DNA of 36,017 bases, from the IMG/VR virus record IMGVR_UViG_3300045988_158494. One strand, written 5' to 3'. This DNA comes from a virus. Shown piece after piece: positions 7,726-36,017 of this stretch. How positions within the stretch are numbered: the stretch's first letter is position 1; each line of letters opens with the position of its first letter. The notes beneath the pieces were generated by a model. That model made no database searches and was not told where the DNA came from. It saw nothing but the letters and a program-made list of their open reading frames with translations. The position numbers and the translations under genes are program-made.

Positions 7726-9851
7726 GGGTATCAAAGAAAAGACAGGTCCTTACCACGGGCGCTGTCGACATGAACCGCAACGTTATACCGCCGGACGCTA
7801 TCGACTGGTCGCGTTTCGACGCTAATCCGTTGCTGCGCTACGACCGAGAGCACGAAGGCCACAAAGGTGTGGCCGTCGGCAAAGTTATCGAACGAGAACG
7901 TATCGGAGACGCGTTCGTTGGGCGTCTCGCTTTTATGGAGAGATTCGAAGACGCGGACATCGCGTTCGAGAAGTACGAGCAGGGGATCCTCCGTTACGTA
8001 TCAATCGGCGGATTCGCTCTCGGGCAGGAGAACGAGGACGGCATTTTCGTCGCAGACACGTACCTCGCTATGGAGGTTTCGCTCGTGGCACAGCCTGCCA
8101 ACATTGAATGCCGACCGATCGAGGACCGTGACGTAGAGTCGGAAGCCGATCGTGAGATCGTGGAAGGTATGCGCAAAGACGGTTGCGAGGTACGTTACCT
8201 TACGATGGGATTCTCCGAGACGGAATACAAACGTATCGAAGCCAGTCTCGAAGAGTCCGATCCGGAGCCGAACAACGATCCGGAGCCGAACAACGACCCG
8301 GAGCCGAACAACGACCCGGAGCCGAACAACGACCCGGAACCGAACAACGACCCGGAACCGAACAACGACCCGGAACCGAACAACGACCCGGAGCCGAACA
8401 ACGACCCGGAACCGAACAACGACCCGGAGCCGAACAACGACCCGGAGCCGAACAACGACCCGGAACCGAGGCCCGTTAATGCGGGTGTCGAGGACGACGA
8501 TGACGACACGCAAAAACACGGACGCCGACTGCCTAACGGCATGACGTGGCACGAACAACAGATTCTTAACCAAACAAAACCAATCAACATGGAAAAGACT
8601 TTCAGAGAGTTGAATTGCGACGCCGATTTTCAGAAGCGTTTGCACCAGCTCGGCGCGGCGTTCCGTACTGGCGCTACGGCCGCAGACAAAACCACGGAGA
8701 ACACCGAAACGGTGCGTATGCTCGCCTGCTCGATGCTGAACGACGAGCGTATGGTAACGCTCGCTTCGGCGGCGAACTTCACCAACGGGGTGACCCACGA
8801 ACGTAAAAACGGACTTCGCGTGCTCGTCGAGTGCGCCGCAGGCGGCGCAGCCGCTGGCACGCTGGCCGCTGCTGACCTCGGTGTCATCAAGTGGCTGTCG
8901 CTTTTCTACGAGAAGCTGCTCCCGAACAACACGTTCATGCGATCCGTACGTTTCGTTCCGATGTCGGACCGCGAGGGTGCCATCTACGTTGAGTCGGGTG
9001 TGAACCCCGCAACGTACGTCGGTTCTGTCACCCCGGTCAACGCTCCCCGCTACTTCTACGAGGACATCAAGCGGACGATCGCCCGGCAGGTGTTCTCCAT
9101 CCAGCCGATGACGTTCCAAAACGCGGAGCTTGCCATCCTTGCGTACGACAAGCAGTCGTGGGGTTGGACGATCGCTATGGATTCGCTCATGGCGAAGGTG
9201 GCTACGTTCATCCTTCAGGTGGCAGCGAACACCACAGGTGTGTCGAAGGTTCTCACCTCGGGTGAAACCGTCTCGTCGCAGGGCCTGTTCCCGATCGAGG
9301 CTCCGAGCTCGAACGTGAACATTAAGAAGCTCGCCCCGACCGACCTCGTGTACCTCGTCGGCCAGTTCCTCATGCAGAACTACGTGCTCGACAATCGCCG
9401 CGTGGAGGTCGTACTCCCGTCGCAGATTTACACGATGGCCGCTGCGAACAAGGACTTCCAAACCGTTCTTACCCGCGGGCTGTCCGGTGCGACTGGCTCC
9501 GGCTTCGAGTGGAACGGCATGAAGATCGGCCAGCGTAACCCCGTTGCACGTTACAACACCACGAGCAACAAGCCCGAGCTCGACCCGGCTATGTACGCCG
9601 ACTACTCCGTAGACGCTGACGGCAAACCCGAGGCCATCGACCCGGCCGTTACCGGCAAGAACACGGTTGGAGCAGGTGTTGCGTTCGTCGAGAACGAGAT
9701 CATCGCAGGTATCGGAACGATCGACGTGATCGTCATGCCGGACCCGACCAACTACGGATACACGTACTCGGGTTGGATGTCGGCAGGCGCAACCGTTGCC
9801 CGCGACGGCGGAAAGGGTGTCGCACTTGTCGTTCCCACTCTCGCCGAGTAA
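7722..9851 (+). CDS. Prohead protease (HK97 S78/U35 type) - repeat linker - major capsid protein, as a single 709-aa ORF
   Basis: The N-terminal protease motifs are YDREHEGHKGVAVGKV, LRYVSIGGFA and LAMEVSLVAQPANIEC. DPEPNN is repeated 11 times (8259-8456). The C-terminal region of about 420 aa has capsid-like size and composition. An in-frame internal ATG lies at 8589. Confidence 0.8.
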   Translation: MRVSKKRQVLTTGAVDMNRNVIPPDAIDWSRFDANPLLRYDREHEGHKGVAVGKVIERERIGDAFVGRLAFMERFEDADIAFEKYEQGILRYVSIGGFALGQENEDGIFVADTYLAMEVSLVAQPANIECRPIEDRDVESEADREIVEGMRKDGCEVRYLTMGFSETEYKRIEASLEESDPEPNNDPEPNNDPEPNNDPEPNNDPEPNNDPEPNNDPEPNNDPEPNNDPEPNNDPEPNNDPEPNNDPEPRPVNAGVEDDDDDTQKHGRRLPNGMTWHEQQILNQTKPINMEKTFRELNCDADFQKRLHQLGAAFRTGATAADKTTENTETVRMLACSMLNDERMVTLASAANFTNGVTHERKNGLRVLVECAAGGAAAGTLAAADLGVIKWLSLFYEKLLPNNTFMRSVRFVPMSDREGAIYVESGVNPATYVGSVTPVNAPRYFYEDIKRTIARQVFSIQPMTFQNAELAILAYDKQSWGWTIAMDSLMAKVATFILQVAANTTGVSKVLTSGETVSSQGLFPIEAPSSNVNIKKLAPTDLVYLVGQFLMQNYVLDNRRVEVVLPSQIYTMAAANKDFQTVLTRGLSGATGSGFEWNGMKIGQRNPVARYNTTSNKPELDPAMYADYSVDADGKPEAIDPAVTGKNTVGAGVAFVENEIIAGIGTIDVIVMPDPTNYGYTYSGWMSAGATVARDGGKGVALVVPTLAE
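8259..8474 (+). repeat. 18-bp tandem repeat GAYCCGGARCCGAACAAC x11 plus a partial 12th unit (encodes DPEPNN)
   Basis: Units were counted directly. All differences between units are synonymous (GAT/GAC, GAG/GAA). Confidence 0.95.
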
Positions 9852-9910: not shown

Positions 9911-10432
9911 ATGGCAGCACCCAAATTCAACATCAAACAGATCGCGGGCATTGCGACGCAGGTTCGTCGCTACAAGACGCTCCACGTAACGACGGAAGGC
10001 GTCATGTTCCGCACCAAGCGGGCAGCCGAGGAGGCTGTACGTACCCGAAACATGATCTTTGAGGACGCAACGCAGTTTGTGGCCATCAAGGAGATCACCG
10101 AGAGCGACGTAACGAACGAAAAGCTCCGTTCGTACGCGAAGGACCTCGACGCGTTCAACAAGCTCTTCGAGAACGCGTACGTTCCGGTACAGAAGGGAAA
10201 GAAGGCGGCCGAAAAGAAGGACGAGGGCCCCGCACCGATCTCGAAATCCGAGGAGGACGAGATCATGGCCGCGCTCAAAGGGGAGGCCGACGCGCAGCCC
10301 GAAGCCGCAAAGACGGAGGCCGACGCGCAGCCCGAAGCCGCAAAGACGGAGGCCGACGCGCAGCCCGAAGCCGCAAAGACGGAGGCCGACGCGCAGCCCG
10401 CAAAGGAAAACAAAAACCCGTTCAAAAAGTAA
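9911..10432 (+). CDS. Hypothetical 173-aa protein with a C-terminal EADAQPEAAKT repeat (decoration or scaffold-like?)
   Basis: ATG ORF between the capsid and sheath genes, with a charged, low-complexity C-terminus. Confidence 0.6.
   Translation: MAAPKFNIKQIAGIATQVRRYKTLHVTTEGVMFRTKRAAEEAVRTRNMIFEDATQFVAIKEITESDVTNEKLRSYAKDLDAFNKLFENAYVPVQKGKKAAEKKDEGPAPISKSEEDEIMAALKGEADAQPEAAKTEADAQPEAAKTEADAQPEAAKTEADAQPAKENKNPFKK
10282..10400 (+). repeat. 33-bp perfect tandem repeat x3 plus a 20-nt partial unit (GGAGGCCGACGCGCAGCCCGAAGCCGCAAAGAC)
   Basis: Units at 10282-10314, 10315-10347 and 10348-10380 are identical. Confidence 0.95.
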
Positions 10433-22669: not shown

Positions 22670-23056
22670 TCAATGATCCTCGTGCGTTACGATTGTACCT
22701 TTCGACTTACGGCCAGCGAGTTTCTCCAAGTTCATTTCGGCGACCTTGCTCAACGAGTAGCCAAAATGATCCGCGATACCTGCCACGAACCACAAAACGT
22801 CACCAAGTTCGCCCATAAGGCTCGCACGTTTACTTTCCGCTTCGTCGATATGGAAAGTATCAAATACGAGTAGATCGTCCGTTACGTATGCTTCCTTCTT
22901 ACGCTTCCACTTTGCGATCTTGTCGGCGAGCTCTCCTACCTCGGCCACGAGGCCAAAGGCCATATACGTAACGTTGTCACACGAGTCCAACCTCGTGCTC
23001 ATGGCTCGGGTTTGATACTCGTCAAGTCCTTTTACGTGCTGTTCTTTACTCTGCAT
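22670..23056 (-). CDS. mazG: MazG-like nucleoside triphosphate pyrophosphohydrolase
   Basis: The motifs GLVAEVGELADKIAKW and GELGDVLWFVAGIA give the EExxE/D pattern of all-alpha NTP-PPases. The start was chosen at the ATG at 23056, which overlaps the upstream stop by 11 nt (ATGCAGAGTAA). Confidence 0.75.
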   Translation of the reverse strand: MQSKEQHVKGLDEYQTRAMSTRLDSCDNVTYMAFGLVAEVGELADKIAKWKRKKEAYVTDDLLVFDTFHIDEAESKRASLMGELGDVLWFVAGIADHFGYSLSKVAEMNLEKLAGRKSKGTIVTHEDH

Positions 23057-23504
23057 ACGCCCAATCCATAATTGCCCCGTCGAGGAACAGGATGTGATGA
23101 CGAAGTTCAGACGTGAAGGCCGTAAGGTCACTTTCGAACGTAGGATCTACGTCCTTGCCTTCGATGCGGGTATGTATGATAGCAATGACCTTATTGAGCT
23201 CGTCTCGTGTAGTACGCAGAAACTCATCTACGTTATTCTGTGACTCCCGAGACGTTATAGACTTATCCAACTGAACGTATGACGTCTTAGCCCAAATCTC
23301 CGAATCCCACTCGGGGACCTTTCCCAATACACGAACAGTTTCGGCGATCCGATCAGCCCCATCGAGAAGTGTTTTCCACACCTTATCCAACAAGGTATGG
23401 GCCGAATCGAATCCCGATCCGGCAACGAGCCAGTGGCGACCTTTTACGTTAATGGCCACAATCTCAACAGTAGCCAGCATTTTGTTCATTTCAAATTCAT
23501 TCAT
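23046..23504 (-). CDS. Dps-like (ferritin superfamily) protein
   Basis: NVKGRHWLVAGSGFDSAHTLLDKVWKTLLDGADRIAETVRVLGKVP aligns by eye with the Dps core HW.V.G..F..LH.LLDE......D.IAER...LGG.P. The ferroxidase His, His, Asp, Asp and Glu positions are present. Confidence 0.7.
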   Translation of the reverse strand: MNEFEMNKMLATVEIVAINVKGRHWLVAGSGFDSAHTLLDKVWKTLLDGADRIAETVRVLGKVPEWDSEIWAKTSYVQLDKSITSRESQNNVDEFLRTTRDELNKVIAIIHTRIEGKDVDPTFESDLTAFTSELRHHILFLDGAIMDWAYAE

Positions 23505-28888: not shown

Positions 28889-28990
28889 ATACGTGGATTT
28901 AAGAGAATTGTGCGAGTGCGGGACCCGCCCCCGCGCACGTTACGTGCTCTGTGCTCGCTACCCGACTGTTTAACGTACAGTCGAAACGTG

Positions 28991-30080: not shown

Positions 30081-30812
30081 TTATAAAAGTGGATTTTGTA
30101 CGTTTGCAATCTTACACAACTTCACGATCTCCTCGGGGTGCGTGTGGTAGTAGTACGTCGATTTGTGCAACAGGGTCAACGGTATGTCGCACGGGTTGTC
30201 CTCGGAGAATCCCGCACGTTCGAATAGCTTACGCAGATACCCGACGTTGCAGTGATTGTGGTACGACTTACGTCTGTGGAACTCGTCCTTCGGTTTCTCC
30301 TCCGTGAAGTACAGGTCCGCGAAATCCTCCGGCGTCAACGTGTTGTTGCACTCCAAGTACAGCGCCGTGTAGTCCCGCACGTCGATCTCTTCCCGAAACG
30401 AATTGAAGTCTGTCGCGTACAGTATGCGCTCCCCGTCGTGCGTAATATCGAACCCGATACAGGGAATGTCGTGCTTTACGTTTATCGGGCGCACGAAATA
30501 CTCGTCACCCGGCGCCGCATCGTACGGTAGCCGATACGTTGGATTCGGCAGCCCGTCGTCCTCGCACTCCAAAATATTGACCACTAAAAACGGCCACTTT
30601 TGAGCTATTGCTTCGCTTGTAGCCCTCCCGGCATATATAGGTATGCCTTCGAACCTTTGGAGCGCCTTTGTGTGGTCTGTGTGGGCGTGGGTAAGCAATA
30701 CCGCCGACCCTTTCGGCACGACCTCGGGGCAAAACCCGGCGTCGATTATTAAACGATCGTCGATCGTTACGCAGTTGCCGCTACTGCCCGATTTAATTAC
30801 TCTAACGTCCAT
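30081..30812 (-). CDS. Metallo-beta-lactamase-fold hydrolase (probable nuclease)
   Basis: SGSSGNC...IIDAG...LLTHAHTDHTKAL contains the HxHxDH motif. There are later His and Asp residues (NVKHDIP, YATDFN). Confidence 0.8.
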   Translation of the reverse strand: MDVRVIKSGSSGNCVTIDDRLIIDAGFCPEVVPKGSAVLLTHAHTDHTKALQRFEGIPIYAGRATSEAIAQKWPFLVVNILECEDDGLPNPTYRLPYDAAPGDEYFVRPINVKHDIPCIGFDITHDGERILYATDFNSFREEIDVRDYTALYLECNNTLTPEDFADLYFTEEKPKDEFHRRKSYHNHCNVGYLRKLFERAGFSEDNPCDIPLTLLHKSTYYYHTHPEEIVKLCKIANVQNPLL

Positions 30813-31350: not shown

Positions 31351-31614
31351 CTATTCTGCAACGACCTCGACACCCACCGCTACATATTTGATGTCGGGTT
31401 TCACCACGAGCGTGGTTTCTACCACAACTTCGTCCACCTTGCACGTCTCGATAACGTTCTCGTCGCAGAAACGTAGAGCGGCGCTCAACGTTCCGAATTT
31501 GTGCTCCTCCTTTTCGTGGTTGGCTCGCGTCACCCGCACGGTAACGCCTATGTTCGTTATAATGAACTCGCCGTACCCAACAGGTACGAGGTTCGGTTCT
31601 CCCGCACGTTTCAT
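31351..31614 (-). CDS. Hypothetical 87-aa protein
   Basis: ATG ORF with a 4-nt overlap with the upstream gene. Confidence 0.5.
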   Translation of the reverse strand: MKRAGEPNLVPVGYGEFIITNIGVTVRVTRANHEKEEHKFGTLSAALRFCDENVIETCKVDEVVVETTLVVKPDIKYVAVGVEVVAE

Positions 31615-31988
31615 ATTAAGTAATCTTTAAGAGTTAGTTGGTACTCCCTACGTGTTATATCACAACGATTTTCGTCCACACGTATGCCCTTGTCGTTCAA
31701 TACGTGAATTTCAAAATACTTTATTACTCCTTTACAGTATGTTGTGACAAGGATGTTAGACGCCCGTTGGAAAATATTCACGTGCAATCCGCCCTTTGCG
31801 CAAGCTATTATCGCGCTTGCAGTGTTACTAAAACGTTTTGGAACAACCGACCTGTCGCTATCGACCTCCTGATAATACCCACACACTACACAAGGCTGTT
31901 CGGCTATGTGCGTGTGTCTGAATATACGCATAAACCGATCAAACGAATCCAGTTCTAAACGAGTTTCTACGTAGCATTTACTTATCAT
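31611..31988 (-). CDS. 125-aa Cys-containing protein, paralog A of a tandem pair
   Basis: It shares the PCVVCG motif and the C-terminal block FEIHVLNDKG..DENRCD..RREYQLTLKDY.I with the adjacent gene. Confidence 0.65.
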   Translation of the reverse strand: MISKCYVETRLELDSFDRFMRIFRHTHIAEQPCVVCGYYQEVDSDRSVVPKRFSNTASAIIACAKGGLHVNIFQRASNILVTTYCKGVIKYFEIHVLNDKGIRVDENRCDITRREYQLTLKDYLI

Positions 31989-32362
31989 ATTACGTAATCT
32001 TTGAGGGTCAGTTGATACTCTCGACGCGACAGGTCACAACGGTTCTCGTCCGCATGTACCCCTTTGTCGTTCAATACGTGAATCTCGAAAAGATCTATCC
32101 CGTCGTGATGGTGCGCATCTACGAGGATATCGGACGCACGTTGCGATATTTTCACATATTCACATCTTTTGACACACGAGTAGATAGCGTTTTCTAAACC
32201 ATCAAACCTTGTCGGGCATATCTCTATACGACCCCGCCATGTTCCAATTGTACCGCACACAACGCAAGGACGCTGCGCAACGTCGCTATACTTGAGCTCT
32301 TCGATGAACTCCTCAAAAGACGTATACTCTTCCCACGTGTCCACATACGTTCTCTTAATCAT
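31985..32362 (-). CDS. 125-aa Cys-containing protein, paralog B of a tandem pair
   Basis: Same length and motifs as 31611-31988. The 3' ends are also visibly similar at the nucleotide level. Confidence 0.65.
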   Translation of the reverse strand: MIKRTYVDTWEEYTSFEEFIEELKYSDVAQRPCVVCGTIGTWRGRIEICPTRFDGLENAIYSCVKRCEYVKISQRASDILVDAHHHDGIDLFEIHVLNDKGVHADENRCDLSRREYQLTLKDYVI

Positions 32363-32365
32363 AAC

Positions 32366-32451
32366 TTTAAGTTTTAAGTACGTTCAGACTATCTGAACGT
32401 TTCGAGCTCCGGCGAGGGCACGACCCGCACGTTTCGATTTTCCGGAGCTAA
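32366..32451 (-). promoter_or_regulatory. Conserved structured intergenic element, copy 1 (nested GC hairpin plus a 9-bp hairpin), 42 nt upstream of the ATG at 32362
   Basis: It is 86 nt long with 5 mismatches to copy 2. The outer stem pairs 32405-32412 with 32442-32449. The inner stem-loop is 32414-32428. The second hairpin ACGTTCAGA-CTA-TCTGAACGT is at 32380-32400. Confidence 0.7.
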
Positions 32452-32455
32452 AGTG

Positions 32456-32815
32456 TTATTTTACAGTCGAGAGCCACGATATTGGGTATTTAGGCTCTAT
32501 CTTACGCTCCCCTACTACCTCCATACGTTTTCCCACAAGTTTAAATTTATTCACGCACCCGATACCCTCGAGAAAATCGTTCATCACTCGGACCTCCGAT
32601 CGGGATACTTCGCAAACGTGAATATACGGCCGTACAAATACTGGTCCGGGGTGTGTATGATAAGCAAACTTCGGGTCTCTAACGTAAAGTATAAGACGCT
32701 CACCGTGATAAACCATGTACTGCGCGCACGCACGATTCATAACGCCGTGCCACGATCTGAACTGCGCGTGTTCACAATCGTTGAACCCACGCAACAAAAC
32801 GTCTACTGTCCGCAT
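32456..32815 (-). CDS. Hypothetical 119-aa protein
   Basis: ATG ORF overlapping the upstream gene by 13 nt. Confidence 0.5.
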   Translation of the reverse strand: MRTVDVLLRGFNDCEHAQFRSWHGVMNRACAQYMVYHGERLILYVRDPKFAYHTHPGPVFVRPYIHVCEVSRSEVRVMNDFLEGIGCVNKFKLVGKRMEVVGERKIEPKYPISWLSTVK

Positions 32816-33459
32816 ACCTTGTCCACGAGTGCTTTACGTCCTTCTTTGAGCTGGTCGATAGTGGCGAACAGGGTTAGCTCTTTTACGCGGAACAACGGAT
32901 TGATCTCCGAGATACGCTCCCCGATCTCCGACCGCAGGTCGCTGACTAACTTATCGTAATAATCATAACGTTCGATTGCGTCGAGGAGGATGGCAACCTC
33001 CTCGCGTATGTCTGTTACCTTTTTGACTGCTGCGTCACGTATCGCTTGAGCGCATATGCGATTTTCGGAGGTGACGCCTTCGTCGGCGAAAAAGTCCAGA
33101 TACATCCCGTTGTCGATATACGTTCCGGTCGATACACCGTTATCATCCGTACCGAGGGAGACCCAACGATTCGCCATGTGGAACATAAACCACAAGCGTC
33201 GATACTCTATATGTACGCCGTTGTTCATCTTACCGTACGTATCGACATCGGTTGTCACCGAAAAACGAGGTACGTCCATATTCGACGCGGGGCGGAACAT
33301 CTTCTCGCACGCTTCGTCGATAGCCTTCTTGAATCTTACGTTGAGAACTTTACCGTCGAAACGTTCCGCCACGTCGAGTAGCGGAACGAGGTATTTGCAA
33401 AATGCGTTGTACTCAATGACTTGTGCCTGCGATACCGCGATAAACTTTTCTTTTTTCAT
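32803..33459 (-). CDS. Hypothetical 218-aa protein
   Basis: ATG ORF directly downstream of element copy 2. Confidence 0.6.
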   Translation of the reverse strand: MKKEKFIAVSQAQVIEYNAFCKYLVPLLDVAERFDGKVLNVRFKKAIDEACEKMFRPASNMDVPRFSVTTDVDTYGKMNNGVHIEYRRLWFMFHMANRWVSLGTDDNGVSTGTYIDNGMYLDFFADEGVTSENRICAQAIRDAAVKKVTDIREEVAILLDAIERYDYYDKLVSDLRSEIGERISEINPLFRVKELTLFATIDQLKEGRKALVDKVCGQ

Positions 33460-33463
33460 TGTG

Positions 33464-33549
33464 TTTAAATTTTAAGTACGTTCAGACTATCCGAACGTTT
33501 CGCGCTCCGGCGCGGGCACGACCCGCACGTTTCTATTTTCCGGAGCTAA
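33464..33549 (-). promoter_or_regulatory. Conserved structured intergenic element, copy 2, 44 nt upstream of the ATG at 33459
   Basis: The outer stem pairs 33504-33510 with 33540-33546. The inner stem-loop is GCGGG-CACGA-CCCGC at 33512-33526. The second hairpin at 33478-33498 has one mismatch. Confidence 0.7.
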
Positions 33550-33620
33550 CCGTTATATTAAAGGAAAGATAAAGAACATATCACCCGCATAGGGCGGACC
33601 TCGTTCGCTCGCCGGGATTT

Positions 33621-34772
33621 TTATCCGACGCGTAACAGGACGACGTTCGGAACGTAAACGTCCTGCACGCTCTCCGCGTTGTCTACTATGATCGGGAAGG
33701 CATGCATACCTCGCGTCACACGAGCGGAGTTCAGAATAGAGATACATAATTTTACACGTTCTGCACGATTAACACTTTTAAGTGGCACACCGTTGTACGT
33801 TAAAGTAAACGTCCCGGTCGTGCGACCCGTTTTTAACGTTTTATCGGTTACGAGTTGCCACCCGTCGGGAAGTTCGGCCTGTACGGCCCGGCGGTCCGCC
33901 TCGCGTATCTCGGCCTCCGTTTCGGCGATTCGGCGCTCCAACTCCCGCACGTTGTCGCGCGCACGTTTCGACGCCTCGACCATTTGTTTAGCGCGTAATA
34001 TGGCCGACTGTTCGTCGTTGTATGCGTCGAGTTTTGCGACAATACGCGCGGCTTCGTCACGTTTCGACGTCATAACCGCACACGCCTCGGAGTACGCAAA
34101 TTTGATCTCCCGCACGCGCTCCGCCGTGTAGGCACGTTTGCACGTCGGGCAAACGCACTCCATACCCTTGTCCACGATCTCCACGGCTCGGTTGTAGTCG
34201 GCGAGAAAAACTCGCTCGGCTTCGCTCAAAGGTTCGCACGTTTCGACGGGGATAGTTACGTTGGATAGTGCGTAACGTTCGGCCGTCTCTTTGTCCGCAC
34301 GTAACGTGCGCAACGTTTTGCGGAGTTGGTCGGCCTCGACGTTGTCCATTACGTCCGCCCGCACGAGTACGCGGCGCAGTTGGTCCGCCGTTACTTGCGG
34401 GTCGGCTAACGTATTAACGTCGGCACACGCGGCAGCGAACTCGACGTCCACGCCTTTGTCCATCATCGCCCGCACGAAGTCAGTTTGAGACGTAGCGCGG
34501 TTATTGACGTACAATTGCGTGCCTTTGGGGGTCAGTTCACGCCGGATCGACAACCCGGCAAAATCTTCGATCTCAACAGTCGGCCTAACCTTATCCCGAT
34601 CGACCCCGGCCGGGATAACGTCGAACCCGTTCAACGTGCGGCCAGTTAGTGCCCAATAATACGCATTTACTAACGTGGTTTTCCCTGCCCCGTTTGCCGC
34701 CGTTTTGCTCTCAACTGGCAAAACGTGCGGGCCGCCACGAAACGCGGCGAAATCGTCTAAAATTACGTCCAT
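33621..34772 (-). CDS. Rad50/SbcC-like ABC-type ATPase with a central CxxC hook (383 aa from the ATG at 34772)
   Basis: The N-terminus MDVILDDFAAFRGG...AANGAGKTT contains the Walker A motif. The middle is a long helical region with CPTC. A degenerate signature NRAERVKL is followed by the Walker B motif FPIIVDNAES. The 20-codon extension to 34832 was judged non-coding. Confidence 0.65.
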   Translation of the reverse strand: MDVILDDFAAFRGGPHVLPVESKTAANGAGKTTLVNAYYWALTGRTLNGFDVIPAGVDRDKVRPTVEIEDFAGLSIRRELTPKGTQLYVNNRATSQTDFVRAMMDKGVDVEFAAACADVNTLADPQVTADQLRRVLVRADVMDNVEADQLRKTLRTLRADKETAERYALSNVTIPVETCEPLSEAERVFLADYNRAVEIVDKGMECVCPTCKRAYTAERVREIKFAYSEACAVMTSKRDEAARIVAKLDAYNDEQSAILRAKQMVEASKRARDNVRELERRIAETEAEIREADRRAVQAELPDGWQLVTDKTLKTGRTTGTFTLTYNGVPLKSVNRAERVKLCISILNSARVTRGMHAFPIIVDNAESVQDVYVPNVVLLRVG

Positions 34773-34868
34773 TATTTTACAGTTTTTCCCGGACCAACGG
34801 CGGCCCGGCTTTTCGCGCCCCGTGCCCGGCATGATCGGGCCGCCCGCCTAAAGCGGGAAACGGGGCAA

Positions 34869-34928
34869 ATTTCGCCGATCGGATCGGCGGTGCGTACCTT
34901 TGTACGTTTCCGATCCGATCGGCGAAAT
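34869..34928. repeat. 60-nt near-perfect palindrome: 19-bp arms ATTTCGCCGATCGGATCGG / CCGATCCGATCGGCGAAAT with an inner 5-bp hairpin CGTAC-CTTT-GTACG
   Basis: Arms at 34869-34887 and 34910-34928 are exact reverse complements. Each arm carries two GATC sites. Confidence 0.9.
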
Positions 34929-34937
34929 ATATACGGG

Positions 34938-34965
34938 AAAAGCCGCCCTTTTCGGGGCGGCTTTT
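34938..34965 (-). terminator. Intrinsic terminator after the 34986-35579 gene
   Basis: AAAAGCCGCCC (34938-34948) pairs with GGGCGGCTTTT (34955-34965). On the - strand the GC stem is followed by a U-run, 21 nt after the stop codon. Confidence 0.8.
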
Positions 34966-34985: not shown

Positions 34986-35579
34986 TTACATTTTGTCCGG
35001 ATCGAGGCCCGCGGCGATAAGCATCGCGCGCAAACGTTCGTTTTCCGACAGCGCGGCGGCAGCCTTGAATTCGGCGGCGGCTACCTTTGCCGACAACGTT
35101 TCCCGGGCGGCCTTCTCGGGCAGTTCGTACGCCTCAACGTCGGCGGCGGCCTTTTCGAGTTCGGCGGCGGCGGCCCCCTTTTCGGCTTCGAGCGCGGCCA
35201 GTTCGGCTCGGGCTTCGTCGATCTTTTTGTCCAGTTTGGCGGCGTCCGCTTCTGCGGACATGATACGGGCGGCGGCCCGCTTGATCGACATTTCGGCGGC
35301 CAGCGCGTCGGTCATACTTTCGATGTCGGCGTCGGCTACCACAAGCCGAGACACCTTTTCCGTTCCGTCGTCCTGCGTTTGCAGAACGGCTCGGAAGAAG
35401 TTCCCAGTACGCTTTTCGAAGTTGAGGCCCTTCTCGGACAGGTGCGGCAGTTTCGCACGGAGCACGGCGGCGGCCTTTTTCTCCAGCGGCGACAGTTCGC
35501 GCGCGGGCTCTTCGGCGGTTGCGACGGCCTCAACGGCGGCGGTTTCAACGGTTTCGGGGTTGTTCAGAACGTTTTTCAT
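34986..35579 (-). CDS. Ala/Glu-rich coiled-coil protein (197 aa), first gene of the early arm, function unknown
   Basis: ATG ORF with a GC3-rich coding signature, which produces long shadow ORFs on the + strand. It appears to form its own transcription unit between element copy 3 and a terminator. Confidence 0.65.
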   Translation of the reverse strand: MKNVLNNPETVETAAVEAVATAEEPARELSPLEKKAAAVLRAKLPHLSEKGLNFEKRTGNFFRAVLQTQDDGTEKVSRLVVADADIESMTDALAAEMSIKRAAARIMSAEADAAKLDKKIDEARAELAALEAEKGAAAAELEKAAADVEAYELPEKAARETLSAKVAAAEFKAAAALSENERLRAMLIAAGLDPDKM

Positions 35580-35632
35580 GATGCGTAAATGTTTAGTTAG
35601 TTAATAAGTGAATTACACGCGTTTTGCGTTTG

Positions 35633-35680
35633 TGCCGCCGCCGGGAGCGACCCGGGCAAACGCTTAACGTTTCGGCGGCA
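35633..35680 (-). promoter_or_regulatory. Structured element copy 3 (same nested-hairpin architecture with different stem sequences), 53 nt upstream of the ATG at 35579
   Basis: The outer 8-bp stem pairs TGCCGCCG (35633-35640) with CGGCGGCA (35673-35680). The inner stem-loop is CCGGG-AGCGA-CCCGG (35641-35655). A 17-nt bulge contains ACGTTT. Confidence 0.55.
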
Positions 35681-35912
35681 GACCTATTTTATTTTGCGAG
35701 TGCAACTCGCAAAACCGCTTTACAAAGGTTCGAACGATCGACGGGCTCGAATCCGTCTATTCGGCAAGAGCTTTCATACGTAGTTATTGCGTTCATATCT
35801 TAAAAATTTTTAATATATCCCGTTCGGACCTGTTCCGAACTCCTTCTGGGGGTAAAATTACAAAAACGTTTCGAGACGTGCAAGTTTTTCGACCACTTTT
35901 TTGCAAAAATTT

Positions 35913-35931: not shown

Positions 35932-35939
35932 CCCCCGGG

Positions 35940-36017
35940 CCTGCTGCTTCAGTCGATCGGGCGGCCTGCTGCTTCAGTCGATCGGGCGGCCTGCTGCTTC
36001 AGTCGATCGGGCGGCCT
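35940..36017. repeat. Three perfect head-to-tail copies of the 25-bp unit (35940-35964, 35965-35989, 35990-36014) plus CCT
   Basis: Counted base by base. The array continues into the unit at 1-25 when the ends are overlapped. Confidence 0.95.

Follow-up and report, generated by a model that had tools for sequence, protein, structure and literature searches.

The window analyzed here, a stretch of 36,017 bases (IMG/VR virus record IMGVR_UViG_3300045988_158494), looks like a whole phage genome, in which a structured element of ~85 nucleotides (nt) recurs in front of genes of the early region. Structural genes (large terminase, head, tail sheath, baseplate hub and fibers) occupy the + strand from ~500 to 21,000, and the early/replication arm runs on the - strand from 35,579 down to 21,272. 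The early arm encodes a 197-amino-acid (aa) coiled-coil protein, the product of the first gene, an SbcC-like ATPase and several small proteins of unknown function, together with a metallo-beta-lactamase-fold hydrolase (30081-30812), a gp2.5-like single-strand-binding protein, a family-A DNA polymerase and a primase-helicase. Two copies of the element, referred to as copies 1 and 2, form an 86-nt direct repeat (32366-32451 and 33464-33549) with 94% identity and 5 differences. Both are read in the sense direction on the - strand, where the genes downstream of them, which are unrelated to each other, are also encoded. A preliminary description of this locus had reported the repeat with its five differences and unrelated flanking genes, and direct-repeat analysis bore out this account.

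Copy 1, in its complete form (32363-32451, - strand), spans the interval from the stop codon of a 119-aa gene (32456-32815) to the ATG (32362) of a 125-aa gene (31985-32362), and scores 104.3 bits at 32376-32458 against the covariance model introduced below. Its domain 1 (32405-32449) comprises an outer stem (AGCTCCGG/CCGGAGCT, 32405-32412 paired with 32442-32449), a 5' bulge formed by a 13-nt strand (AAAAUCGAAACG(U), 32429-32441) and an inner hairpin (32414-32428) with the loop UCGUG and one C.U mismatch (GAGGG/CCCGC). Hairpin 2, ACGUUCAGA-UAG-UCUGAACGU (32380-32400), has 9 bp and a 3-nt loop. It is the only one in the family to combine an A-U at the seventh pair with a UAG loop; an A-U at this position is found in 2 of the 38 distinct copies, the other (L005:6833) having a UAU loop. 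The A/U-rich leader ACUUAAAACUUAAAGUU (32363-32379) then runs up to the ATG; it contains no Shine-Dalgarno sequence and is conserved across copies.

Copy 2 (33460-33549, - strand; 104.9 bits at 33474-33556) lies between the SbcC-like ATPase gene (33621-34832) and a 218-aa gene (32803-33459, ATG 33459). Its domain 1 (33503-33547) has a 7-bp outer stem, a bulge at 33527-33539 and an inner hairpin at 33512-33526, and its hairpin 2, ACGUUCGGA-UAG-UCUGAACGU (33478-33498), includes a G.U pair that exists only in the sense-strand RNA and becomes an A.C mismatch on the + strand. All the parts listed in the preliminary description are thus present, but the inner stem, written there as GCGGG-CACGA-CCCGC, is mismatched in copy 1 and its fifth pair is not conserved, being unpaired in 31 of the 38 distinct copies; the 9-bp hairpin is likewise present, but in copy 2 it is perfect only as sense-strand RNA. 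The element also contains an internal direct repeat of two 17-nt units, GAAACGUGCGGAUCGUG and GAAACGUUCGGAUAGUC, which are identical at 14 of 17 positions, lie 32 nt apart and each consist of GAAAC and the 5' half of a hairpin.

A covariance model trained on 11 copies of the element detected 28 copies in the window and its relatives, and a metagenome scan raised the total to 61, of which 38 are distinct, spread over the window and ~15 related contigs of gut phages. All 61 copies are sense-oriented on the coding strand of the early arm, with 2-5 copies per genome. The element-bearing contigs measure 26-35 kb, and those with a stated origin come from human-gut metagenomes. The 21-nt hairpin 2 occurs exactly in IMG/VR contigs with a polymerase only ~69% identical to that of the window. 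A loose hairpin pattern retrieved 64 loci from IMG/VR, among which the covariance model accepted only members of the same clade; a match to the domain-1 pattern in contig L073, unrelated in sequence and rejected by the model, was attributed to chance. A pattern scan of 185,579 cellular genomes returned six single matches in unrelated organisms, which were judged to be chance occurrences without having been scored by the model. A protein-profile search with the ATPase returned only the same eight viral contigs, and a blastn search with 6 kb of the window matched no relative among 50,697 GenBank phages. Rfam gave no match in the window at gathering thresholds and nothing relevant at E <= 10 on the element regions, whereas ARAGORN recognized neither a tRNA nor a tmRNA. 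The element is confined to one small clade of phages of ~27-36 kb with two subclades and is an innovation of that clade. The search of related and metagenome contigs that the preliminary description had proposed as a check thus led to a single clade, and its notion of a phage-specific, structured and previously undescribed motif stands.

The covariation statistics were computed from an alignment of the 38 distinct sequences. In these, domain 1 consists of an outer stem of 7-8 bp and an inner stem of 5 bp, continuous along the 3' strand, with a 12-nt bulge (AAAAUNGAAACG) on the 5' strand and a 7-nt loop, N-UCRUG-N; the 9-bp hairpin 2 comes next, followed by the A/U-rich leader without a Shine-Dalgarno sequence. 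RNAalifold independently gave the same fold with an additional U.G pair, replaced by U-A in one copy, through which the inner stem stacks on the outer one. Standard pairs fill 92.8% of the pair cells, a figure that drops to 27-46% if the 3' partners are displaced by 1-3 columns, and the observed covariation score was matched by none of 500 shuffles. Double changes are found at the outer-stem pair 13-87 (UA 22, CG 13, UG 2), which is U-A in one subclade and C-G in the other, with U.G intermediates, and at the hairpin-2 pair 104-121 (GC 31, AU 5, GU 1); pair 103-122 of the same hairpin appears as GU 27, GC 8 and AU 2, and the apical pairs as GGA/UCU, GAA/UUC or GGA/UCC. The bulge and the loops, though unpaired, are nearly invariant. 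In a variant class of the element, an extra hairpin replaces the bulge, with its first GAAAC, and creates a three-way junction.

The preliminary description had envisaged that homologous phages might lack the element or carry uncompensated breaks in its stems; the relatives retain it, and their stem substitutions are mostly compensatory or wobble changes. With 38 distinct sequences and two covarying helices, the element represents a well-supported new candidate RNA family, as judged by comparative sequence analysis. Folding against shuffled sequences gave z scores of -3.2 and -2.7 for the sense strands of copies 1 and 2, respectively, versus -2.3 and -1.2 for the antisense strands. Of the two possibilities originally offered for the element, a 5' leader RNA or a structured DNA site, the evidence favors the former, leaving the DNA site less favored. 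In one relative, an element copy (L008 4241-4357) carries a 34-nt internal tandem duplication between two GAAACGU motifs, which suggests slippage or recombination on the internal repeat of the element itself.

Every copy, including the divergent copy 3 discussed below, is intercistronic, in the order stop codon, element, leader and ATG. Between the stop codon and the start of a copy there are 3-15 nt, and between its end and the ATG 17-22 nt. The copy that follows the ATPase gene, copy 2 in the window, departs from the first of these distances: here, a spacer of ~70 nt holds a weak terminator-like hairpin with a U-rich tail (33583-33599, - strand). Genes within a cassette overlap by 4-13 nt, and the element heads gene cassettes rather than every gene. 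When the gene order was compared between the window and seven relatives, the 5' part of the early arm read promoter, short open reading frame (ORF) and copy-3-type element (where present), first gene, terminator, ATPase gene and element. This is followed by element-headed variable cassettes, an element with the 218-aa and 119-aa genes, and an element with the 125-aa gene, after which overlapping genes continue down to the polymerase. Each variable cassette in these eight genomes is headed by its own copy of the element. As to the contents of the cassettes, one in L004 (3154-3831) encodes a pentapeptide-repeat + DUF5758 protein and one in L003 (2102-2458) a Kyano_Gp96-family protein, products that may have accessory or anti-defence functions.

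The closest comparison is with L001, the polymerase of which is 100% identical to that of the window. L001 has two cassettes that are absent from the window, whereas a tandem duplicate of the 125-aa gene in the window is absent from L001. Copy 2 of the window is a chimera: its left flank corresponds to the L001 element after the ATPase gene and its right part to the L001 element before the 218-aa gene, so that the crossover falls inside the element and leaves a one-cassette indel relative to L001. This chimera shows loss or gain of a cassette by recombination between elements. The tandem paralogous 125-aa genes themselves (31611-31988 and 31985-32362, - strand) are 79% identical over 111 nt at their starts, and the relatives have a single copy.

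Recombination between copies, as documented by this chimera, is also what one would expect of a functionless repeat, that is, a selfish or hitch-hiking sequence homogenized by gene conversion and spread by cassette recombination. The greater similarity of copies within a genome than between subclades and the lack of the element in the distant relative L006 would fit such a repeat as well. However, between the subclades, the element with its leader is 80-87% identical and its 73-nt core ~93% identical (hand count), despite flanking genes with only 51-74% DNA and 34-70% protein identity, and gene conversion within genomes cannot account for conservation between genomes. Moreover, 61 of 61 copies share a strict orientation and a stop-to-ATG register, and the substitutions preserve the structure. 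We therefore regard a functionless repeat as very improbable.

The promoters of the early arm bear on both the host and the role of the element. The primary-sigma promoter consensus of Bacteroidota is TTTG-N19-21-TAnnTTTG (PMC7366714). L005 has a perfect promoter of this type, TTTG-N20-TATATTTG, directly before the first gene, L007 has one with 1 mismatch at the orthologous position, and the window has a putative early promoter with 2 mismatches, CTTG-N20-TAATTTTA (35853-35884, - strand), orthologous to both. No gene of the genome is preceded by a Shine-Dalgarno sequence, and A-rich leaders are found throughout. Given the promoter type, the lack of Shine-Dalgarno sequences and the gut origin, the host very likely belongs to the Bacteroidota. 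A search of the eight early arms for TTTG-N18-22-TAnnTTTG with up to 1 mismatch found matches only upstream of the first gene and none in or next to any copy of the element, and a sigma-70 scan found no promoter in the element. Hence, the suggestion in the preliminary description that the element marks early transcription units could not be demonstrated: it lacks the Bacteroidota promoter consensus, and the sole good promoter of the early arm lies upstream of the first gene.

The element could nevertheless carry a promoter of another kind. In this alternative, which we consider unlikely, it would be a DNA cassette of the PeSL type described in T4, with domain 1 as an attenuating stem-loop and a delayed-early promoter overlapping hairpin 2; the promoter would be used by the host polymerase with an alternative or phage-directed specificity factor, and the palindrome might double as an operator. 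As with PeSLs, a repeated composite motif heads ORFan cassettes in a variable early arm, and its copies recombine (PMC2839356, PMC4122927). The sigma-W/ECF-type promoter consensus is TGAAAC-N16-CGTA, with CGTA or CGTC at -10 and a spacer of 16-17 nt (PMC5758882), and the second GAAAC-N16-CGTA of copies 1 and 2 fits it; in the window, this string occurs only at these two elements and at one intragenic site on the opposite strand. However, it is absent from copy 3 and is a by-product of the palindrome in a genome where GAAACG and ACGT are over-represented more than any other words: no 7-mer is commoner than CGAAACG, and ACGT occurs 462 times in the window, ~3.3 times the expectation, which inflates chance matches for any motif containing it.

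Further observations fall on either side of a PeSL-type promoter. The conservation of unpaired bases fits a protein reading DNA, in L005 a host promoter stands where L007 has the element, before the same gene, and the genes downstream of the first-gene terminator and of the weak hairpin before copy 2 may need promoters of their own. On the other hand, the Bacteroidota sigma-A consensus is found in no copy, and neither a sigma factor nor an RNA polymerase was recognized when the early and larger proteins were scanned against Pfam, PHROGs and NCBIfam. A promoter spacer would need no compensatory changes, whereas the nested GC stems covary and tolerate G.U pairs. In addition, L004:3067 and L007:1158 are without hairpin 2 and CGTA, yet keep domain 1 and head genes, and most copies start 3-15 nt past a stop codon with no terminator intervening.

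Intrinsic termination was considered next to promoter activity. Downstream of the first gene, the early arm contains a canonical intrinsic terminator (GCCGCCC-CGAAAA-GGGCGGC, then UUUUCCC; 34935-34961, - strand). The element has stable GC stem-loops, but neither hairpin has a U-tract after it on the sense strand, where CGAAAC comes after domain 1 and ACUUAAAA after hairpin 2. In a genome that does hold a canonical terminator, the element thus does not look like one on the sense strand; a pure terminator role had already been doubted in the preliminary description. A terminator scan flagged the + strand at 33512-33539, where the antisense inner hairpin of copy 2 precedes a U-rich run, ACGUUUCUAUUUUCC; this arrangement could stop antisense transcription, but the evidence for the sense strand is stronger.

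The opposite activity, antitermination, would liken the element to the put RNA of phage HK022: the nascent element would bind the polymerase and allow read-through of the terminators after the first and the ATPase genes. Copy 3 is indeed placed between the early promoter and the first gene, which the canonical terminator follows, and the conserved loops and bulge would fit direct contact with the polymerase. However, in L005 the first-gene terminator is present with no element ahead of it, the terminators to be suppressed lie upstream of most copies, and an antiterminator needs no 2-5 copies at cassette heads at a fixed distance from the ATG. Rfam offered no similarity to described antiterminator RNAs. 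There is accordingly little to commend antitermination, and we give it a small chance.

The leaders that connect the element to the start codons have A at about -3, -6 and -11 to -14 (-6 and -11 to -13 in copy 1), matching the initiation pattern reported for Bacteroidota (PMC7366714). The fixed distance to the ATG, the nearly invariant loops and bulge and the internal direct repeat, in which each of two units identical at 14 of 17 positions joins GAAAC to the 5' half of a hairpin, are also what might be expected of a translational operator. An RNA-binding protein occupying the half-sites GAAACGUGCGGAUCGUG and GAAACGUUCGGAUAGUC would then co-switch all cassette-head genes, and the occurrence of the same stem variants in all copies of a genome would reflect co-evolution with one factor. 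We consider an operator of this kind decidedly unlikely. Searches of Pfam, PHROGs, NCBIfam and PDB sequences recognized no RNA-binding protein among the early genes. With 17-22 nt separating the end of hairpin 2 from the ATG, a protein bound there would not obviously occlude the start, and the variant class has an extra hairpin in place of the first GAAAC.

We tentatively favor, with a confidence slightly short of even, the reading that in the element a structured part of the early mRNA acts in cis, as an intercistronic expression module that heads each independently translated gene cassette and secondarily provides homology for recombination. Under this mRNA-module reading, the early arm would be transcribed mainly from the one host-type promoter before the first gene; it is from this single promoter that we infer one transcript for the arm. 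Overlapping genes within a cassette would be translationally coupled, and at each new cassette the element would occupy the whole interval that separates the preceding stop codon from the following ATG. Both domain 1 and hairpin 2 would fold locally and be recognized by a host or phage factor; the invariance of the unpaired bulge and loops suggests that such a factor responds to sequence in addition to shape. The recognized domains could delimit the mRNA by processing, by protection of its ends or by both, and could hold the following 17-22-nt A/U-rich leader single-stranded for initiation by the Bacteroidota ribosome. At the same time, ~85 nt repeated 2-5 times in one orientation would serve as portable homology, through which phage recombination could delete, insert and swap cassettes.

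Several observations weigh against the mRNA-module reading. The distant relative L006, with a polymerase 55% identical to that of the window, has an ATPase homologue, tightly packed genes and a similar gene set without the element, implying that the element is inessential to such phages. Within domain 1, the inner 4-bp stem shows no covariation, its four pairs being invariant, and the asymmetry of single-sided transitions toward wobble pairs on the sense strand, which leans to RNA (G.U ~9 versus A.C ~4, tallied over the aligned variants), is not significant. Stem variants are common to the copies within a genome, and this concerted evolution means that independent compensatory events are few. 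The covariation in hairpin 2 preserves a palindrome and would also be expected of a DNA site bound by a symmetric dimer; similarly, the conservation of unpaired bases exceeds the need of a pure folding or insulating role and fits a DNA site equally. If the hairpin at 33583-33599 is an efficient terminator, copy 2 would need a promoter of its own. Finally, that the element keeps the start region unpaired is weakly supported by the folding predictions: the three genes led by an element have start-site accessibilities of 0.54, 0.71 and 0.70, against a genome mean of 0.51 (standard deviation 0.13), values only modestly over average and in just 2 of the 3 genes.

A more specific idea, which we regard as a long shot on the sequence evidence, is that the element is a phage-evolved RNA signal read directly by the host RNA machinery, either as a ribosome-recruiting structure or as a 'punctuation' signal. 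If true, the ribosome-recruiting version would be a bacterial analogue of an internal ribosome entry site, giving priority to the cassette-head genes. As for the punctuation version, the modeled geometry of domain 1, with 7-8 + 5 bp along a continuous 3' strand and a 7-nt UCR loop, matches the acceptor/T-arm half of a tRNA; if this version is true, RNase P/Z-type enzymes or the phage hydrolase (30081-30812) could cut the transcript and release cassette mRNAs. A PDB sequence search with this metallo-beta-lactamase-fold hydrolase gave no match.

Copy 3 (35633-35680, - strand) lies ahead of the first early gene. Its outer stem pairs 35673-35680 with 35633-35640 and encloses a three-way junction with the hairpins AAACG-UUAAG-CGUUU (35658-35672) and CCGGG-UCGCU-CCCGG (35641-35655), the latter abutting the 3' outer strand and having UCG within its loop. 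The fold has a z score of -2.9. Against the covariance model, copy 3 scores 20.9 bits (E = 0.016 over 196 kb and E = 0.003 for the window alone, with filters off), which makes it the third-best match in the window, the next one scoring 13 bits. In L007, the position that corresponds to copy 3, before the same gene, is taken by a clear domain 1 (1158-1236, 58 bits) followed by a different small hairpin, and the topology of copy 3 is the same three-way junction as in the variant class. Because of this orthologous position and shared topology, copy 3 is a probable diverged relative of domain 1. A small hairpin, ACGC-AAAAC-GCGU (35617-35629), stands where hairpin 2 would be, and an A/U-rich leader connects it to the ATG at 35579.

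For copy 3, the preliminary description had the bases, the nested stems and the hairpin, written there as CCGGG-AGCGA-CCCGG, right, but kinship with the family is only marginal at 20.9 bits. The compensatory changes that it noted between copies 1 and 3 consequently rest on a marginally supported homology, and the solid covariation comes from the relatives. The shared ACGTTT(C), also invoked there, is no evidence of kinship in a genome where ACGT is over-represented 3.3-fold. Likewise, the statement that no gene lies upstream of copy 3, and with it the argument against a terminator built on that statement, proved wrong: a 35-codon ORF (35689-35796, - strand) ends 8 nt before copy 3. It corresponds to an 80-codon ORF of L001 (176-418) from which 45 codons have been cleanly removed in frame. 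A short ORF stands before the first gene in the window, L001, L002 and L007, with the element or its copy-3 form between them, whereas in L005 the promoter leads directly to the first gene, with neither short ORF nor element. Two other hairpins proposed as relatives were not recovered as such: the one at 28907-28955 scores 5.8 bits (E = 9) on the wrong strand, and that at 35822-35840 gave no covariance-model match.

Other features of the window deserve mention. A 25-nt unit, GGCCTGCTGCTTCAGTCGATCGGGC, forms 3.2 tandem repeats at 35938-36017 and occurs again at the left end (1-33), as either a terminal repeat or the wrap-around of a circular assembly. The motif TTCATATCC(C/A)AC occurs five times at 126-426, within a non-coding left end of ~500 nt, in the orientations +, -, -, + and +. 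The whole window has 19 matches to this motif at up to 2 mismatches, versus 7.1 expected, and the five at the left end are clustered and the best; they are candidate iterons or regulator sites. Between the first-gene terminator and the ATPase gene lies a long palindrome (34870-34927, - strand) with 18-nt arms, UUUCGCCGAUCGGAUCGG ... CCGAUCCGAUCGGCGAAA, which is kept in L001 and L002 and missing from the other subclade, a possible operator or RNA structure. Two near-perfect tandem repeats, each with a period that is a multiple of three, occur in coding sequence, namely 18 nt x 11.8 (8258-8469) within a 709-aa head-like ORF and 33 nt x 3.6 (10282-10400) close to the end of a 173-aa ORF (9911-10432). 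In the replication arm, 23046-23504 (- strand) encodes a Dps/ferritin-like DNA-binding protein (NCBIfam E = 4e-9, below curated cut-offs).

Other identities were considered for the element and rejected or set aside. The 'GAAAC + stem + H' of a hammerhead ribozyme is present, but inspection by eye showed no CUGANGA core upstream of domain 1, and this identity was rejected. For a hairpin promoter of the N4 type, the protein scans turned up no virion or phage RNA polymerase candidate, and the G.U pairs would become C.A mismatches on the template strand. Mimicry of a CRISPR repeat was suggested by the succession GAAAC ... 32 nt ... GAAAC and by ATTGAAAC in one subclade; however, the position in question varies between C, A and U, GAAACG is the commonest word, and identity to a type I-C CRISPR repeat is, by eye, only ~15/32. 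The GGA motifs vary between copies, which speaks against a CsrA-type GGA decoy; CsrA is not known from Bacteroidota.

An element of this kind may be of broader use. Polycistronic expression in Bacteroidota, which do not use Shine-Dalgarno pairing, is poorly understood, and the element, compact, conserved and placed exactly where cistrons meet, offers a way into initiation, processing or polymerase control in these dominant gut bacteria; it is also a candidate portable part for engineering Bacteroides operons.

Among known systems, the put RNA of HK022 is a ~70-nt cis-acting structure of two stem-loops in early transcripts; an early operon has one of them, placed ahead of the terminators to be suppressed. 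In gross architecture, the element resembles it in having two adjacent stem-loop domains within ~75 nt that would act in cis on the sense strand. In contrast to put, its copies are bound to cassette heads and start codons, and L005 has the terminator without an upstream element. In phage T7, according to Dunn and Studier, RNase III sites between the early genes of a polycistronic transcript reportedly give rise to message ends protected by hairpins. These sites are irregular duplexes of about two helical turns (~20 bp) with an internal loop. Similar structured elements thus recur between early cistrons in both cases, but the longest coaxial helix of the element, ~13 bp with a one-sided 12-nt bulge, is short for RNase III.

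The SAS and extended SAS of Cluster K mycobacteriophages (PMC3203893) are likewise repeats located just upstream of the start codons of a subset of the non-structural genes, which are unrelated to each other, nearly all in one orientation, and the extended form adds an upstream inverted repeat. The SAS are suspected of a role in translation and consist of a 13-bp motif, GGGATAGGAGCCC, that includes the ribosome-binding site and is present in 11-19 copies per genome (PMC3203893). This motif is absent from the element, which differs further in its length of ~85 nt, its nested helices, its 2-5 copies and a host that does not use Shine-Dalgarno pairing; the resemblance is thus only positional.

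In genome evolution, the element behaves like the PeSLs of T4-type phages (PMC2839356, PMC4122927), which are short composite repeats in one orientation, contain a GC-rich stem-loop and head ORFan cassettes in a variable early region, and between which recombination deletes, inserts and swaps cassettes, as seen here in the chimeric copy 2. What defines PeSLs is an early promoter of the host sigma-70 consensus together with a stem-loop shown to terminate transcription (PMC2839356, PMC4122927), whereas the element has no Bacteroidota promoter consensus, and so lacks the promoter that defines a PeSL, and no U-tract terminator. Furthermore, its fold is more elaborate and covaries, it reaches the start codon, and it has no sequence similarity to PeSLs. 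Nor has it any sequence in common with SAS or the T7 sites, and its geometry departs from that of all three. We therefore class it as a mobile early-region regulatory cassette of a known kind, carried by a new RNA motif. The shuffling of cassettes by a repeated module, as in the T4-type coliphages, thus also operates in uncultured phages of the human gut, with a different and apparently RNA-structured module.

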